Shown piece after piece: positions 30,249-63,630 of a stretch of 64,000 bases of DNA. The first letter of the stretch is position 1; each line of letters opens with the position of its first letter. This stretch comes from Haplodiscus bocki (lineage: Eukaryota), in the NCBI GenBank assembly GCA_965655095.1, contig OZ296651.1:54994001-55058000 (forward strand), read 5' to 3'. The position numbers and the translations under genes were made by a program. The notes below the pieces were generated by a model. That model searched no databases. It was given only the letters and a program-made list of their open reading frames with translations, and was not told the DNA's origin.

Positions 30249-30494
30249 TGTCGCGCGGTCTAGTACTTTAAATTTATTTGGTTCAATTTCCAAGTTGACA
30301 AAAGTCCTTCACTTGTTGGTGTGCGGCCGTTGCTATTTAAACAACTTAAGTCTCAAAATTGCCTTGCCGGCCCGCGTGAACAAAGTATTGCGTGAATTCG
30401 CTGGCAAGGACTTAGTGGATTGCTATGAAGTGGATTAAGAATTTGCAGAGAATTTATTCAGAGTTAACAGTTATAATATTGAAATAAAGTTATG
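30249..30494 (-). repeat. Partial LTR (246 bp)
   Basis: Matches 31314-31559 except two substitutions. Confidence 0.9.
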
Positions 30495-31313
30495 TCCAGG
30501 GGCAGTTGAAATGTGGTATTTCGTCAATTCTCTCGTCACTGAGAGTATTCCAAACAACCGGGCATTGATGGGCCGGATGTGGAATTCAAATATGATCGTT
30601 GAGTTCTTTAATCAGTTGCATAAGTTGAACTACAGATAAAAGATATCCGGGTCCCAAAAGTAGAATAAGAATTGCAAGAGACGGGAAGTACAAAATTAGG
30701 ATCAAATTCTGTCTCATTAAAAAGGGTTGAAATAAAAGGATACACAAAGAATTGATATTTTGAAAATCCAGGAGGTCCACCTTACCGAAACAATCTTATA
30801 GTACGTTACCCAAAAAAGAAAGATCCGTAGTTTTGTAGGAAATAGTGTCCCAATTTGCAAATGAGAGGTGAAATAGGTGGGCGTTGAACTCGCTTCGTTA
30901 GATGAGCAGGATAGGTAGGTCGTCGTTCATCGAATATCAGGAATCACAGTCCTGTCCAAATATGACCCGTTCCAATCGTATCACAGCGAGAAGATAAGGT
31001 GGTGTCAATAGAAGTGCCACTATTGTCAACAGGAAAAAGTAGAGAGCCACAATCAAGTCACGTCTCATCCACGGTGACTCAAGTCAAATTCGTACGTGGT
31101 CACTTGGAGAAATCCGGTGTCGAGTTAAAATATTCAGTCTTACTAGCACCAAGAATAAAGATCCAATAGTGATTATATTATTCACAGTTAAAAAAATAAC
31201 CAAAATTGAAATTAAGATGCCTGGAGAGAGTAGCACAATAGAATTAAAAAACCCGTAGACTTCACTCATAGCATCATCATAAAAAATTTTTGGCCTCACT
31301 GGTCGCACCAGTT
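30495..31313 (-). repeat. Duplicate of the 5' leader including the PBS (819 bp)
   Basis: Matches 46963-47781; one difference noticed. Confidence 0.95.
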
Positions 31314-33178
31314 TGTCGCGCGGTCTAGTAGTTTAAATTTATTTGGTTCAATTTCCAAGTTGACAAAAGTCCTTCACTTGTTGGTGTGCGGCCGTTGCTA
31401 TTTAAACAACTTAAGTCTCAAAATTGCCTTGCCGGCCCGCGTGAACAAAGTATTGCGTGAATTTGCTGGCAAGGACTTAGTGGATTGCTATGAAGTGGAT
31501 TAAGAATTTGCAGAGAATTTATTCAGAGTTAACAGTTATAATATTGAAATAAAGTTATGGCTTCAAATACAATACTAGTAAACTTGGTAGGGAGTGCACA
31601 AAGGTGATGGTACTGTTCCAGCGTAGAAGATTTAGTTCAAATTTCACTCTATTCCAGTTTCATTCAAAGTAAGGAAGTTAGCAACTGTATTATCCAGAAT
31701 TATTTGCTCAAAATTTATCAATACCCAGAGATTTTTATGACGGAATTACAAATTCAGATTTTTAAGATGAATTTCAACAGAATATTGTTGCACGCGTTTT
31801 AATTCGTTTGACCATAAGATATAAAATCAGTAAAATCACAGTAGCATTGATTATGATACCTTTTCTAACCTCATAGGAGATGAGTCGTCGTTGAGCACCA
31901 CCAACCTGGTAAAAGTTACGTTGGGACGGAAAATACAATTGTCCATTTTTTCTAACAGTTCATTTTACAAGTAATCCTCTAAGTCAATTTTACTTTTAAT
32001 TCAGCTTCGATCAGAGGTGTTAGGTTAGTAGCTAAGACACGGTAACTCAGCTTACGCGTAGCAACCGAGCGATTTCTCCTAAGGTCAGGAATTTAAAACA
32101 TTGAGTAAGAATCAATGTGCCTCTGACGTTTATTTCTGATCGAGGACTGGGTTAGTGTTAGTTTTTATCTAAGACTCGGCATCATTTCACTTTAATGGAG
32201 GCAGCCAACAAAGGGCACAACCCCAAACGGAAGTAGCCACTGAGGAAATTTTCTTAGGGTTCGGGAACTCAGTTGAGTCTCACACGTCCTTTTAGGATCG
32301 TGGTCATCCGTTAGCTCTTCTTTAGAGTATATGATAACAGGCCCGATCTTAAATACTAAGTTTCCTGGCGAGATATACTCTGTCAGGGGTTAGTTATTTT
32401 AGATAATAACATTTTGTTCAATACTTTCAGAATTTTTCAATACGCTGCCTTCGATTCCTTTCGTTTGGCTGTTTGGTCTTTGGATAGTAGTTTTCTTTTT
32501 CTTTGTGAATAGTAGAATTATTCCGTCTTTGAAGAAGTTTTGGCCAAATTTTAGGAAGATTGGAGTTTTGTTCGAAACTTATAATTTTCTGAAGTTTTCG
32601 ATGGTTCTTGTAGGGAAAATTAAGAATTTTAGTAATTCCGCTGTTTTGGAGGTGGTAGTCGACGGTAGGCAAAAAGGAAAGTTTTGATTCCTTCAGTTGG
32701 TGGCCGTCGCTCAAATTGGCGGAGCTCTCGTACTTTTCAAGGCTATTACCAAGTACGGTAGGCCGTGCGCCAAGGAGCGCCAAATATGGTGATCTGTCAA
32801 AAAGTGTCAAAAATTTGAACTAAAAAGAGCAGGGTGTGCAGTTCGGGAAGCAATAAAATTAAGCTTCCGAGAGCGGGGGGTAACAAATAGGAAAGCTTCG
32901 TTTTATCAGTTTGAAGCATGGCAACGAAATTTTGAAGCTTCAAACTGTGCAATTCCAACTTTGTTACCGCTCCCTTCAAACGGTAAGTTGCTATTATTAC
33001 TTCTTTTACGTCATTGCTAAATTTAGAACTAGCACTCTTTAATACTATGGCTACTGGTTAGCGTTATTGCTAACGTAAATTTAGGACTAGCACTCTTTAG
33101 CAGTATGGACTGTTTAGCGTTAAAGCTTTAGTTTAACGTTTACAGTTATGGTTGTTTAGCGTTAGGTCTAACGCGACA
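31314..33178 (-). repeat. 3' LTR (1865 bp)
   Basis: TG...CA with TGTCGCG/CGCGACA inverted ends; adjacent to the PPT. Confidence 0.95.
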
Positions 33179-33192
33179 ACTCACCCCACCGA
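33179..33192 (-). promoter_or_regulatory. Polypurine tract
   Basis: Minus strand ...ggtggggtgagt directly before the LTR TG; conserved at 61934. Confidence 0.75.
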
Positions 33193-33218
33193 CAAGGTGT
33201 TGAAAATGATTGGGGTCT

Positions 33219-34145
33219 CTACGGAAAAGGAAAAAGTAGAGAAGACTGGGTAGGTGGTTTTGGGGGGTCAAAGAAAGAAACATCAAAATACATAATGTCA
33301 TTATGAAGGTAGCCATTGGTTTCCTCAAAAAGTTTCGTATGCGGGAAGAAATACGGGTACCGAACGGTTGGTACTGTAGAAAAGTCAGATATTGTGGGTC
33401 GTGTTAATTCTCCGCGTTCGATGGTCTGGCTCCAAACATTCAGAGGGTTAAGTTGGTCACGTACTTTGATTTGAATGGTTTTAGAGACCGGCCAGGGTAG
33501 AATGTCATGATATTCACCAGGAGAGATAGAAGGTGAAAGAGAGAGCCAAGTCCCAATAGCAGCAGTGAAACCATAAGGATACAATTCCAGATAGAAATTA
33601 TAGCCATAGGGGTGAGACCTGAAAAGAGGGCTTCGAAGTCGGGTGGTCGGTGCATTTTCTCGTCCAGGCTTTAAATACCAGAGTCTGGCAGATTCGAATA
33701 CAAATTTGACAGACGCTACCTTCCACAAAATAAAATTACAATTACTATGTTCGAACTGACAAATTAGATCGCTCATGGTAGATAGCTGATGTTGAAAGGT
33801 ATTAAGCCTCGCATTGTACCTGCACGTCTCAGTGGAGAGACGTTTTTCTAAAAGTTTAATTCTGTTTTCAAGAGAGGCTAATGGAGAGGACTTTTTTGCG
33901 GTTTGTTGGTCAAGTACTTCAATGTGAGTTTGTAAAAGAGCAAAGTCTCGTTGAAGACGTTGTACAAGTTGCTTGAGTGTAGTCCGCTCCAATTTTTCCG
34001 TCTCCACGTGTGTACGCAATTGCAATAGGGTGGAATATATAGCTCCATCAGGTGATAAAGTTCAATTGCCATCTGTAGGAAAAGTTTGGATAGAGGAGGT
34101 AGGTTCCTCGGGTAATCCCAAAAATTCAGGGAGGAGGTAATTCAT
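33219..34145 (-). CDS. TRAF-like protein (coiled coil + MATH/TRAF-C, no RING or zinc fingers); one in-frame TGA near the 5' end
   Basis: ILWKV, SPLFRSHPYGYNFYLELYPYG, LSL...GEYHDILPWP, RDQ, RPT and YLHND match the TRAF-C pattern, with heptad repeats upstream. ATG at 34145 is in frame through one stop. Confidence 0.85.
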
Positions 34146-34433
34146 TACTCACAGATTATTAAGTGAACAGTTAAGCAAATTCAAGGTGAGTAATTTAACA
34201 TTTAAATCAATGCTGAAGATTAGCTGTAATAGCGCACAGCGGAACAACAAGCCGCTGAGTGGGAAGAAGTGTGTTCTGTATGGTGAATTCCTGTTGCTGG
34301 CTGTCCCAAAAAACTAACTTCTACGAGAAATATTCTGGTTTCAAACTATAACACAAATGGGGGTTGAAACGAGGTTTCTTCACGGCCTTCGCTAGTTGTG
34401 CGAAATATTCCCGTTTGTGTTGGCGAGCAAGTG

Positions 34434-34818
34434 TTAGTCTGCTCCTTTTTGGAAAGCTTTGCTGGTGTGTCGTTGCAAATTTCGAACTCGTTTTTTCGGT
34501 CGGGCACGTGCGCGTGCACGGCGAGAGGATAAGTTCTTGGACTTAGCGTTTCCAACAGAAGATGCAATAGTAGAAATTTGTGGCTGGTCAGTAGTGAAGA
34601 TAGCAACTGAACACCCCGTAACCGAAGATAGTCCCCGCGTCGTTGAAGCTGTGTCTGATTGCTCGTCGGGTGAAGCAGGGTTTGATGGAATACTCATCGA
34701 AGAAGGTGAGAGAAGAGTTACAACTGGCTCGGCTGGTTGTTCCAATGCTGATGGCGTTAAAGTTGGAAATATGATAATCCAAATCTGTTAAGATGGGCAA
34801 AGAGTCGTCGCTCTCCAT
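34434..34818 (-). CDS. Ser/Pro-rich accessory ORF with Arg-rich motif (probable frameshift near 5' end)
   Basis: SSRRARARARPKKRVRNLQRH; ATG at 34818 shortly after a tttag acceptor-like site. Confidence 0.45.
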
Positions 34819-34902
34819 TGATTGAGAACCTAAACACTAAGAATTAGTACCGTGTTATATTAAAAAAATTTTATACCGGTGATAATGGTAGTGTTGCCGT
34901 GC

Positions 34903-37020
34903 TCATCGCAGGGTAGAGGTGCTCGTCTTTTTTTTCACTTCCTCTTTCACCTCATGCATATCATTTTCGACACATGGACTTACGTCCATGTGCTCAACAG
35001 CGGCTATCGCCGGAGCACGTGGGCTATACATGGAAGTTAAGACACTTGTTAAGGAAATTTTGTACGAGGCACTCAAGAGGGTCTCACCAAACCCTAGAGT
35101 TGAACCAGTTAACTTATCTATTTCCATGTAGCGCACGATCATAACTACCATATCAATTAAGAGCTTAATGAACAAAAAGACTGAGAAGTAAATTCCGCAA
35201 TGCTCAAGTACATAAACGACAGGTCCAAACGTGTCCAAGAATTGATCTTTGAAATACCCAGGCGAAATCATCTTATCCACAAAGAACTCGGTTCGTGGTG
35301 TGTAATAATGAGAGCTGTCTGTTCCTTCTTTAGCGGTGGTGGTGTAAACAATAAGATTTTGTGAGAACTTCTTAAGCGCAGATCTCGAAGCGGCATTAAT
35401 AAGGATACTATCCCAAAATCCTTTAAGCTCATTACGAGTATACATGCCCGCGTCCTGTGATCCAGTGAAAGTAGGGGAAGCAACTGGACTAATATCTTGA
35501 GGTCCAAATATGGCAGGTTTGTCTTGATGTACAATACCAGGTTTCAGAGTGTACAAGGACTCTTCCTGATCCATGTCAAGTTGAAACAGGTTCTTGATGC
35601 GATCAGAACAATTTTGAGTCATGGCATGTGGATAGGTTTGTCGAGTTATTGGGTCAACAAACTGAATTTGTCCTCTGTAAAGAATTGGAATTTTGTCAAA
35701 GCACTGGTTCATTGTGTGGAGAGGCGAGTGAACTTTCGGGCAGTGATAGAGCCATGCTACACTCCCATCTGTTTCTAGAAACATCGATCGATTACCAGTG
35801 AGCATGTAACCGGCCAAACGCGGGTTCTCAAGAGCGAGCATGAGATTAGTTAGAATTCGGGTACGTTCTTGTTCGCATTGATTCTGCAGTAGCTGTATTT
35901 CCGTAGCTTGGAGTAATCGCGAGCTTTGAAAGAATAGATAATCGATTTTCGTTCCAAGATGAATTTCGTAATCAATGTTCAGATAGTTGTCAGGGTCCGC
36001 TGTTTGTACTTTTTGTGTTCCTTCCAACTTAGGATTATGAGCATATAGTTGACCGAAGTCGCCTTTCTCCTTTGGTCCCAGGTATTGTAAGATCTTGGTT
36101 GCTCCGTTTGGATCACGACCCCGGTTTCTCCCGGTGTCCATGTCAAAACCTTCACTTAAACGATCCATGTACAGTGACTCGTAGTTTGTAGGATAAATAG
36201 ATGTTGGCTTTCCACAATGCTTCTGAGGGTTGTTCTTGACTTCAAATACAAATTTAGAGCTGGATTCGGCTCCACTGATAACGTAATATTTCTTTCCTTG
36301 TTTCACCATATTGACTTCTTCCGTTCAAAGTATTGAAAGCGCACAGTTGTCGGGATAGTCCCAGATGTAGGCGTAAGGGTCTAATGAAGTAGTTTCGCAT
36401 CCCAGTTCTTCTAGAGCGCATGGTAAAATTAAACCGCTATCGGATAAAACTTTTCCGTTTTCTAAAGTAACTTTCAGAGTTGTTGTCTGCATGTGAGGGA
36501 GGAAGGTGTCACGAGTGATCCAACCTTTACCGTCACATTCATTCCTGTAGTCATCGCTGGTGTCACCATAAATTTTTACAATAGGATCTTTTGTATCAAA
36601 ACCAAAGTTTATAGAATGTCCAAGCAAGGTAATATCTTTTCCTTTTGCTAACGTTCGGCATTGTTCTGGAGAGATAACAATGTCACTCGTAATTCCTGCA
36701 ATAGTATGATCAATGCTGCTATGATCATGGTGTCCGCAGTGCCATTCTTCTCGTTGGGGTTGTACTCGGCATTTAGTGGCGTTCAATTTCTTTCTGAAGT
36801 GTTTGGTGTAGAGCACAACTTTGGCCTTACTTTTTTCCAAGTCTTCAGGCGTAATATGGCATGGTCGTACCTGATTTATGGCGCAAAGAGTATTTTCAGT
36901 CATCTCACTGCAATCGAAATGAGCTACTTTAAGGGCTGGCGCAACCTGGTCTTCATCTGGAGTTAAATTGAAAAGTACCTCGACAGTAGGTGCGAGGATT
37001 TGAAAGAACAATAGCTTCAT
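34903..37020 (-). CDS. env: Envelope glycoprotein, chuvirus-G-like (class III fusion type); one in-frame TGA at 36325
   Basis: ORFs 36325-37140 and 34903-36309 share one frame. Hydrophobic N-terminus, HFDC, Cys-rich ectodomain, CFDKIPILYRGQIQFVDPITR and a C-terminal TM helix. Confidence 0.8.
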
Positions 37021-37296
37021 CGCTAATTGAGTTAGCGGAAGTCCCATTTGTAGAGGGTAGCTAAGAAAAATGAACCGTAAAAAGGTAAGCCGTAATATCA
37101 AACCGGCAGCTTTGTGGGCACTAAGACAAAGCGGGAGCAAAAATCTTATAGTAGTTGCTCCACTACTGTAAAACGACGTCGAGATTTTTATGAAGGGCGC
37201 TGGACCGAACCCAGTATCGTCAAAAAGGGACGCCGGACTAAAACCGGATCGTTAGAAAAAAGTGCCAATTGGGGTTTTCTAACCTGAGTTGAAGCT

Positions 37297-37638
37297 CTAA
37301 TAACTAGTCTTAGAACGTTTCGAACTGGATTGTCCGTTGTCGTTAGTCAGTGACTGACAATGAAGAATAAGTTCTGTCACCAGATGTTTTTGTAGTGGGT
37401 GAGCTTGAGCAAAGAAGGGAAACTTGTTGAAGTCTACCAGAGACGACAGGAGGTTGATCAGGTCTTCTGTGTCTTAATTGATAGGTATCTTCCAAGTTCC
37501 AGGCTGAGCTTGTCGTAGGCTTCAGACTGTTATTATATTTGGCTTTTCAACTCCTCCCCAAACAATTTTTGTTATCTCCAGATGGTTTCCAGTTACAGGA
37601 TGTTGCCAGATACACTTGAGATTGAGCTCGTAAGTCAT
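37297..37638 (-). pseudogene. Small accessory ORF C (113 codons, two internal stops)
   Basis: MTYELNLKCIWQHPVTGNHLEITKIVWGG...; starts 7 nt after the ORF B stop. Confidence 0.45.
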
Positions 37639-37645
37639 GAATTTT

Positions 37646-37869
37646 CTACTCAAAAATTTTGTTTATACTCTTTGTGTTTCCGGGTGCCGGGTTAAGGTAG
37701 AGGTTTTTAATAAAAGAATAGTGCTCTGATTCTTCGGGACACTTGAAGTTAATTCTTCCCAATCACCAACTCTTTCTGTAAATACTGTAAATACTTTCGT
37801 TTCTGAATTATAAGTTAAATGTTCAAGAAGATAAGAATCGTTATTAATTTCAAGAAAAATTGTGGTCAT
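37646..37869 (-). pseudogene. Small accessory ORF B (~74 aa, 1-nt frameshift), paralog of ORF A
   Basis: MTTIFLEINNDSYLLEHLTYNSETK...KCPEESEHYSFIKNLYLNP. Confidence 0.55.
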
Positions 37870-37886
37870 CTGTTCTTTGTAATTTC

Positions 37887-38108
37887 TTAGATAATTCGTT
37901 TGCGGCTTTTTTTTTCTGCTGATGGAGGGTTTTTGTAAAGACCTTATATAAAGGAATAATATTCTGATTCTTTGAGGCACTTGAAAGTCGTTTGTATTCT
38001 AGTGTCGACATCTTCTAATTTTACGTCAAGACTTTTTGTAGTTGAATCGTAGGTTATCTTTCGTAGCATGAAAGTGTCTCCGTTGATTTTGAAGAATATG
38101 ATTGTCAT
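37887..38108 (-). pseudogene. Small accessory ORF A (73 codons, one internal stop)
   Basis: MTIIFFKINGDTFMLRKITYDSTTK...KCLKESEYYSFI*GLYKNP. Confidence 0.55.
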
Positions 38109-38653
38109 CTGTTTAATAGATTTCCCAATTGGTTGAGTGTTAGGTGTTTGTTGTCAGTCGCTGGATGGGATATCAGTTGCGTTGAGCTGCTTCGTACCGT
38201 TCTGAGTGCATATCACATCTGAGAACGATGTTTCAATTTAGAACCAAGTTTTAAACATTTCGTAAGATAACTAATTAATAATTTAAGAGATTCATTGAAA
38301 ATAAGTTTAGGATAAAATAGTTTTATTCAAATAAATTAGGTTCAAATGTAGGCTGAATCGTGCAAGACTAATAGACGGAGTCGTGCAACAATATTCTATC
38401 TTCTTTTTTCTTTTTCCCAATCTTTCTTCCGTTCTGCTGTGGCTTGTCACAGCAGGGCCTTCCGGGGAAAAATTGCAGAAACTTTTGGGTAGGGAATAGC
38501 TGAAGTTGAGAATGAAGTAGTAAAATGATGGGTTGCAGATCAAAATTGAATGTAGAAGTCGGGTAAAAATTCTGTTTTCCGGGGGATTTGTTGGGTTTCA
38601 TTCCAATTGTTGGTCCATTCGAATTTGTGTTACATTCCAATTGTTGCTACAGG

Positions 38654-62490: not shown

Positions 62491-63630
62491 AGCTTCGTGG
62501 AACCTAATCTTCAACTGGAACCAACTTGTGATAGGAACAAAATAGCTAGTTTCACCACCGGATTCCCAAGTGGCAAAAATATCTCCAATATTTCGGAAGA
62601 ACAACTTTTGAAAAATGCCGTAATATCAAACCGGCGCTGTGTGGGCACTAAGACAGAGTGGGAGCTAAAATTTTATAGTAGTAGCTCCACTACTATTAAA
62701 ACGACGCCGAAATTTTTATAAAGGACGTCGGACTAGAACCGATCGTCAAAAAGGGACGCCGGAATAAAACCGGATCGTCAAAAAGGGACGCCGGACTAAA
62801 ACCGGGTCGTCAAAAAGTGCCAAATAAATTCAACCTCTTCCGTAAGTTTTTGTAAAGTTATGAAGTCTGTCAGCCTATTTTCAGGCCGTCTGTCTTGGTT
62901 CTCTAAGAATAAAATAATCTGCTAGGCCTCGTCAGGCTAGATATAATTCTGTCTAGTTGAGAAGTATTGAATAATGAATAAAGTATGCGCGCTTGAGTTG
63001 TTATTCGGATAGAGGAAAAATGCATTTTCTCTTGAAAGAGATTAAATGATTTCACAAAAAGTCAAGAAGATTTTGGCCAGGACTTCAGTTTCTGGCATCA
63101 TAAGATGGAGTCAGAGCCGAAAGCTTGTTGAAAAGTTGTCCGCACTTGGCTAAAGAAAACGGGTGAGATGTTGATCAGTGACACCTCGTGCAATTTCCCA
63201 AGGTTAGTGTCCGTTCGGAATGCTATGCGTAATAGGATTGCAGCGAGTAGATTCTCAACAATCCCGATCCTCACTTTGGAAAAATTTCCAAAATTGGATA
63301 GAAGTGTTCTAAAATTTTCCATGAAAATAGTCTCCCAGTGAAGTGTTAATTCTGCTTGGTTTTTGCTATGGCCAGGGCACAATGTTCGCTCAATTCGTGT
63401 TTCACGTAATCTGCGATACTTTTGCTGTTGACAGGTTTTTCAATCCAAGTCAAATGACAGTGCTTTGGATGCGAAGAATAGATATAAGATTGAAGGTAAG
63501 CACTAAGGAAATTGAATTCAACGATATTGGAGCAGAAGATGTTTGAAATGGCTATAAGACGAAACTATAAAAAGGACTTTAGAGGCTTCAGTAGCCCAAT
63601 GGGAGCGGGTCGGACATCTCATCATCAGAC

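Follow-up and report, generated by a model that had tools for sequence, protein, structure and literature searches.

The packaging region of MuLV lies just after a splice donor, and the box B of BMV mimics the T loop of tRNA. In MuLV, SL-A to SL-D place several stem-loops and palindromes within about 170 nt, and template switching is biased to the palindromic contacts, so that recombination favors the contact site, as described in the accessible part of the source (PMC5874298). A comparable signal of an LTR retrotransposon is that of Ty1, where palindromes (PAL1 and PAL2) are combined with a Gag-bound and Gag-protected pseudoknot, again according to the accessible text (PMC6844567). In BMV RNA3, an intergenic element of ~190 nt lies upstream of the last cistron, and its box B stem-loop selects the RNA for the replication compartment, as far as the available sections describe it (PMC5869524). 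Structured elements near env that mark intron-containing RNA are also known from the accessible portions of several reports, for example the RRE of HIV-1 with its partner Rev, the CTE of MPMV, the direct repeats of RSV (PMC5035971 for the latter two) and CERV of Cer1. Ancient errantiviruses with an HSV/gB-type env share a Ty3/gypsy gag-pol-env layout and a class III-type env with the elements treated here; however, their description, in its accessible part, mentions no accessory ORFs or non-coding modules, whereas the elements here have several together with a MATH ORF. Packaging, dimerization and export signals of env-bearing animal Ty3/gypsy elements are barely described, and a literature search, thin on subscription journals, found no description of the module reported below.

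The window, a stretch of 64,000 nt from the 1.5-Gb genome of Haplodiscus bocki, carries an env-bearing Ty3/gypsy LTR retrotransposon on its minus strand. According to Pfam, the minus-strand ORFs of this element encode gag, protease, RT/RNase H, integrase, an env of family PF24664 and a MATH-domain protein. A second element at 62-64 kb, a member of family B of ~7.7 kb, is gag-only and non-autonomous; its order is LTR, gag, ~1.1 kb of decayed sequence, the RNA module, an env remnant and part of the MATH ORF. The main parts are listed here.

34903..37047, minus strand: env, a Monjiviricetes-type fusion glycoprotein; PF24664 matches in two pieces, the AUG is at 37047 and a stop breaks this copy.
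37089..37268, minus strand: structured RNA module, family A copy, with sharp conservation limits across families.
62617..62821, minus strand: the same module with three units in the family B element; donor-like GT at 62834, acceptor-like AG at 62606.
34210..34818, minus strand: accessory ORF of ~203 aa with an Arg-rich run, likely the "Arg-rich ORF" of the original prediction; frameshifted in this copy.

The layout of the window element is that of a tandem or rearranged insertion. After its 3' LTR (~33179-31314) come a PBS and a leader that match the 5' copy at 99.9% identity (30249-33179 against 46962-48892), and its 5' LTR has an internal deletion.

The original prediction had placed upstream of env a tandem array of hairpins that co-vary in their stems and are separated by A runs. 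The units are present, two at 37196-37253 and three at 62724-62811 (TRF reports a 32-nt, 3-copy array at 62723-62817), and the named stem variants (ccgg/ccgg, ctgg/ccag and tcgg/ccga) all occur along with a fourth, TTGG/CCAA, each of them paired. The A runs were read on the antisense strand; because gag, pol, env and the MATH ORF all lie on the minus strand, the RNA of the element carries U runs, and a sense-strand unit consists of a 4-bp stem, a 1-3 nt bulge, a 4-bp stem, a 7-nt loop and then a U run. The array also proved to be only the 5' half of a larger feature. The whole module, ~180 nt and sharply bounded from GGCAC (37266-37262) to hairpin P6 (37107-37089), holds one to four or more bulged hairpins, an 8-nt palindrome, an H-type pseudoknot and the hairpins P5 and P6, as follows.

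37262..37266, minus strand: P1 5' strand GGCAC, complementary to the P5 loop; invariant across families, pairing predicted by MFE, no covariation.
37229..37253, minus strand: hairpin unit 1, with a 4-bp stem, 2-nt bulge, 4-bp stem and 7-nt loop UUUUAGU.
37196..37221, minus strand: hairpin unit 2, with a CUGG/CCAG stem and loop GUUCGGU.
37174..37181, minus strand: 8-nt palindrome CGACGUCG in a weak A/U-closed loop, a candidate dimer-initiation site.
37134..37167, minus strand: H-type pseudoknot, with an A-rich loop between S1 and S2.
37163-37167 with 37150-37154, minus strand: pseudoknot stem S1, invariant, with a bulge in families C and G.
37156-37161 with 37134-37139, minus strand: pseudoknot stem S2, with two two-sided pairs.
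37109..37132, minus strand: hairpin P5, whose 10-nt loop holds GUGCC (37117-37121), the partner of P1; two two-sided pairs.
37089..37107, minus strand: hairpin P6 (GCCG/CGGC), the 3' limit of the module; stem near-invariant, loop variable, no two-sided change.

The consensus of the tRNA T arm is a GG/CC-closed stem with a 7-nt UUNNANY loop. The loop is UUNNANY in 208 and GUUC(A/G)GU in 29 of the 256 perfect unit hairpins with a GG/CC closure; judged by these letters, the unit hairpins match the T-arm (box B type) consensus. T-loops are described in general terms only in the accessible part of PMC4919913. The covariance models of Rfam, those for IRESs, xrRNAs, ribozymes and retroviral elements included, gave no match at the gathering score in the window, and with E up to 10 the A, C and L130 copies returned only chance-level snoRNA and sRNA hits with E above 2. 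The module is a previously undescribed structured RNA, grouped here with the genomic-RNA signals of retroelements, and it belongs to no named family.

Compared with the systems above, MuLV, Ty1 and the BMV box B are functional parallels. Unlike the module, the MuLV region lies at the 5' end, carries GACG tetraloops instead of 7-nt T-arm-like loops, and has neither a pseudoknot pair nor a closely following acceptor; the module has no Rfam match. The Ty1 signal likewise differs in lying at the 5' terminus, with no tandem hairpin array, no env and no surrounding intron. The BMV element belongs to a positive-strand RNA virus and has a single box B and no palindrome or intron; in contrast to the module, it is also not a preferred crossover site, as far as the accessible part of the report indicates (PMC5869524). 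The RRE, CTE, RSV and Cer1 elements share no sequence or Rfam match with the module, which alone has a covarying palindrome.

The module occurs in five families of the genome (A, B, C, F and G), whose env sequences are 53-95% identical, and was not found in the inspected copies of families D and E or in copy L131. A genome search with the block gave 2315 first-look candidates, which is not a copy number; the depth of contigs from sequencing runs is higher over the block than in neighboring bins, a measure that mixes families and gives no copy number either. The number of units varies: two in 36 of 44 A copies, one to three in nine B copies, four in all 30 C copies and one in F, with half a unit in 14 and two units in 8 of the 22 G copies. 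One B-type copy, L035, has about eight or more hairpin units and lacks the palindrome linker through a deletion. Three env families from another assembly have no close copy in this genome (best 61-64%). The first residues of one of them, P0184, translate the 3' end of the module, a start that hints at a wider spread.

Conservation of the module far exceeds that of its surroundings. Between families A and C the core is 77% identical, against 51-55% in five upstream 110-nt slices (52% when shuffled) and 39-46% at four-fold degenerate env sites (28% by chance). The B core is 88, 74 and 91% identical to those of A, C and F; the corresponding values are 56-60% for the env remnant and 49-53% upstream. 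Within the window, the retention of the block in the 62-kb element was borne out by an 86% match over 172 nt with flanks that do not align, and the rest of 35.5-38.8 kb has no further match to the second element. In copies picked by their flanks (20 of 40 B listed, 19 of 40 A listed), the module is kept in 19/20 B, 18/19 A and 22/22 G, the remaining A copy carrying an internal deletion; a precise loss from donor to acceptor was absent from the A, B and G copies examined in this way. High identity between families may in part reflect recombination instead of selection, a caveat of which the compensatory changes are independent.

These changes were followed in alignments of 35 and 44 chosen copies, leaving out L040 (same place as L030), the unparsed L035 and L036, and four A copies with no recognizable 5' strand. 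In the 35 copies, the named structure is paired in 96.5% of cells, against 34-60% when it is slid, and 71 two-sided cells were observed against 26 in shuffles; the 3' core of the 44 copies (39 distinct) is 96.6% paired. Because the count of two-sided pairs is not above column shuffles (425/500 and 456/500) and the aligned copies are related to each other, lineage events are the fairer measure. Across families, two-sided changes fall at ten pair positions. The unit stems account for five of them (two upper, three lower), S2 and P5 for two each and the palindrome for one; P1, S1 and P6 are conserved without covariation. Family-wide one-sided changes mostly yield G-U pairs on the sense strand, with exceptions in B and F at the terminal P5 pair, which is broken there, in an F subfamily at one S2 pair and in a G subfamily at the A/U linker stem. 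One two-sided pair of P5 is found only in family B, in 17 of 29 copies and in 0 of 127 copies of A, C and F; an unsampled autonomous element is a possible donor of this pair.

Energy-based folding was less uniform. The window copy folds no better than its shuffles (z -0.23) and the 62.6-kb copy reaches z -3.57; MFE folds often pair CGUC/GACG between units rather than within a unit, and the within-unit register is favored by covariation in families C, F and G. RNAalifold on the gappy alignment recovered S2, P5 and P6 but not the units. A long stem replacing S1 and the base of P5 was rejected as the main structure (94.7% paired, but with one pair broken in 12 of 35 rows) and is kept as a possible alternative fold only. 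Since the covariation is real and the block is more conserved than its neighbors, the original prediction of a cis-acting structured RNA was upheld, and the module is very probably a real, selected RNA of this type. Several other RNA classes were considered and rejected: HDV-like, pistol and twister ribozymes by inspection against their consensus, a frameshift signal because there is no slippery site and no upstream frame, a non-AUG start after P6 because the frame is not kept, a Pol III microRNA cluster because the stems are too short, and an SL RNA or Sm site because the U run is absent in C and G.

The palindrome reads CGACGUCG in its main form in families A, B, C and F, with a wobble form, CGGCGUCG, that introduces a G-U pair in 6 of 67 A and 8 of 29 B copies; in family G it is CCACGUGG in 22/22 copies. 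It is therefore conserved, exposed in a loop and still palindromic after change, in one two-sided event. By our own rough estimate, a two-site change would keep the palindrome by chance about once in 20 cases. Self-duplex energies range from -11 to -13.5 kcal/mol, versus 0 to -2.2 for the local stem. The G change also lengthens this weak stem, and the element contains eight GC-rich 8-nt palindromes.

The same stretch could be viewed at the level of DNA, as an internal promoter with CRE-like repeats, a TATAAAA box and B-box-like loops, or as a neutral repeat homogenized by recombination. In families A, B, C and F, most copies have the word TATAAAAA ahead of the palindrome, the unit loops resemble a B box, and swaps between families are evident. 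This origin is nevertheless highly improbable, as two-sided changes and strand-specific G-U pairs point to pairing in RNA, 16 of the 22 G copies have lost the TATA-like word, and the palindrome changes its sequence instead of keeping a factor site.

In addition to its internal structure, the module has an intron-like frame, formed by the following two sites.

37278..37283, minus strand: putative splice-donor-like site AG/GTTAGA, 15 nt before the module.
37061..37088, minus strand: putative pyrimidine-rich tract with acceptor-like AG (37062-37061).

An AGGT lies 11-24 nt before the module in 40/44 A, 8/9 B, 28/30 C and 29/30 F copies, against a background of 4-7% of upstream 40-nt windows. The donor-like letters vary by family (GTTAGA, GTTGAA and GTGAGT, with GTAAGA in 21/22 G); in family D the pattern used detected no donor-like site. 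On the other side, an AG/CTA-type site occurs in 36/44 A, 29/30 F, 6/9 B and at least 25/30 C copies, and G has a long U tract. The pyrimidine tract and AG follow P6 by 12-36 nt, shortly before the env AUG, and the bracketed GT-AG segment measures 168-309 nt. From these sites, the module looks like the content of its own apparent intron before env. Contigs of four sequencing runs over 32000-48380 are DNA-like, and the 15 joints listed out of 292 include no splice joint. Trans-splicing has been described in an acoel, as the accessible part of the report states (PMC9911081); by analogy, the acceptor-like site could take a spliced leader if the host trans-splices.

Such a frame would suit a switch in env splicing or translation, in which the folded intron limits its own removal and the retained form blocks reinitiation from upstream small ORFs, so that env would be produced only once splicing has occurred. 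The module fills nearly all of the GT-AG segment, P6 abuts the branch and pyrimidine region, and the accessory ORFs abut stop-to-start. A switch of this type is unlikely, however, as the structure is maintained and compensated in family B, where env has decayed to a remnant, and a switch would not need the palindrome. An IRES, with tRNA-like hairpins and pseudoknots recruiting ribosomes to env on a polycistronic RNA, is a very unlikely alternative: the size, the two pseudoknots and the location, with a downstream cistron whose AUG follows after 20-45 nt, would be fitting, but the donor-like and acceptor-like sites would take the module off the env mRNA, the spacer length and frame differ between subfamilies, the structure is kept under compensation in B without env, and no Rfam IRES matches. 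Among the three functions originally proposed, env translation fits worst, export is a possible one, and packaging with dimerization fits best.

The relationships of env and module disagree. In comparisons of one copy per family, C and F are 95% identical in env and 76% in the core, C and G 54% and 93%, and A and F 78% and 91%; the similarity of C and G spans roughly donor to acceptor. Therefore, the module types A/B/F and C/G have been swapped between lineages as a cassette. A role as a dimerization and packaging signal on unspliced RNA is tentatively favored on these sequence grounds, because it accounts for the palindrome, for retention and compensation in B, and for the cassette swaps. The fold of the sense transcript would mark genomic RNA that is unspliced, so that this RNA dimerizes and is selected into particles. 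The 8-nt palindrome would start the pairing of two genomes, the repeated T-arm-like hairpins would be multivalent sites for Gag or a helper protein, and the pseudoknots with P1-P5 closure would yield a self-contained folded cassette. Through the donor-like and acceptor-like sites, the module would be spliced out of env and other downstream messages, leaving spliced RNAs unpackaged and env translatable, and template switching between co-packaged genomes would exchange the cassette. In this scheme, conservation, covariation, strand, boundaries, retention in B and discordance with env are observed features, from which we infer the splicing, the dimerization and the binding partner. A more specific form is somewhat doubtful, namely a 3'-located cassette in its own small intron, with T-arm mimics, palindrome and two pseudoknots, that is traded whole between families of ~54% env identity and whose palindrome variants set the partners of co-packaging and recombination.

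Several points count against packaging. The signals known from retroviruses and Ty1 are located at the 5' end, and the module, instead of occupying a 5' leader near the primer binding site, follows the PBS at a distance of ~10.5 kb and immediately precedes env. The support from the palindrome is one lineage-level event, with the change in G also extending the local stem and eight similar palindromes in the element; P1, S1 and P6 are without covariation, the count of two-sided pairs does not exceed shuffles, and families D and E do without the module. If the module is a packaging signal, it breaks the 5'-leader rule and explains gene exchange between distant families; as an export element or a splicing switch, it would still represent a structured RNA family that is new and has no counterpart in Rfam. 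Its natural covariation, unit-number variants from half to many, two interchangeable sequence types and non-autonomous parasite make these roles testable on a transcript of <250 nt.

Nuclear export, similar to that by an RRE or CTE, would have the hairpins bind a host factor or an element-encoded adaptor, such as the accessory protein encoded after env; export of intron-containing RNA is also compatible with a packaging role. Consistent with export are the intron-side position beside env and the variable number of hairpins resembling protein sites, and a Rev-like precedent in Ty3/gypsy elements exists in the CERV of Cer1 (accessible part of PMC10309623). At the corresponding place, family D carries an array of other hairpins, and B, which keeps the module without the accessory ORF, would need the protein in trans. 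Export is nonetheless doubtful, as it leaves the covarying palindrome and the cassette swaps unexplained and no known export element matches in Rfam. The suggestion that the Arg-rich ORF encodes the partner was likewise weakened. Families C, G and D have homologues of this ORF, E has a weak one, and none was found in the non-autonomous B; searches of Pfam, PDB and Atlas gave no match to the protein. The Arg run and the NES-like start occur in family A only, although the hairpin loops are shared by C and G, and the part that is conserved is a different, C-terminal domain. Unlike RRE/Rev-type systems, the candidate here thus has no conserved Arg-rich motif, and the accessory protein stays a candidate, not a supported, partner of the module.

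Besides the Arg-rich ORF, the elements contain further reading frames. Strings of small accessory ORFs lie before and after env (38230-37300 and 34818-33219, minus strand; L144-L150); in family C they abut stop to start and in D they are separated by 2-12 nt, which suggests reinitiation or trans-splicing on a polycistronic RNA. An ORF of ~116 aa directly before gag (upstream part of 47053-45344, minus strand; L125:rc 1916-2266) resembles one of the accessory ORFs before env by eye. The last ORF of families C and G (L145:7703-9013; L184:4445 onward) ends in a MATH/TRAF domain in C and begins with what is presumably a PAM2-like motif, which could bind poly(A)-binding protein. In pol, an insert between protease and RT (44300-43900, minus strand) appears by eye to be macro-domain-like; Pfam reported no macro domain there. 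An antisense frame of 183 codons (38567-39118, plus strand) with no Pfam match covers a GC-rich stretch between pol and env. Family B copies have no shared open frame after the block. A tandem repeat with a 125-bp unit and 4.5 copies lies at 215-781 of the window. In family D, copies L149 and L150 have gag fused to the integrase tail through a deletion of pol, with env open, and represent a second non-autonomous form. The hairpin array of this family (L209-L216, L128 and L149) was found in 10/10 copies within the 800 nt before env. UGGUG loops cap five of its hairpins and UUAAA(C/A)G(U/C) loops four, and the stems of both types are compensated.
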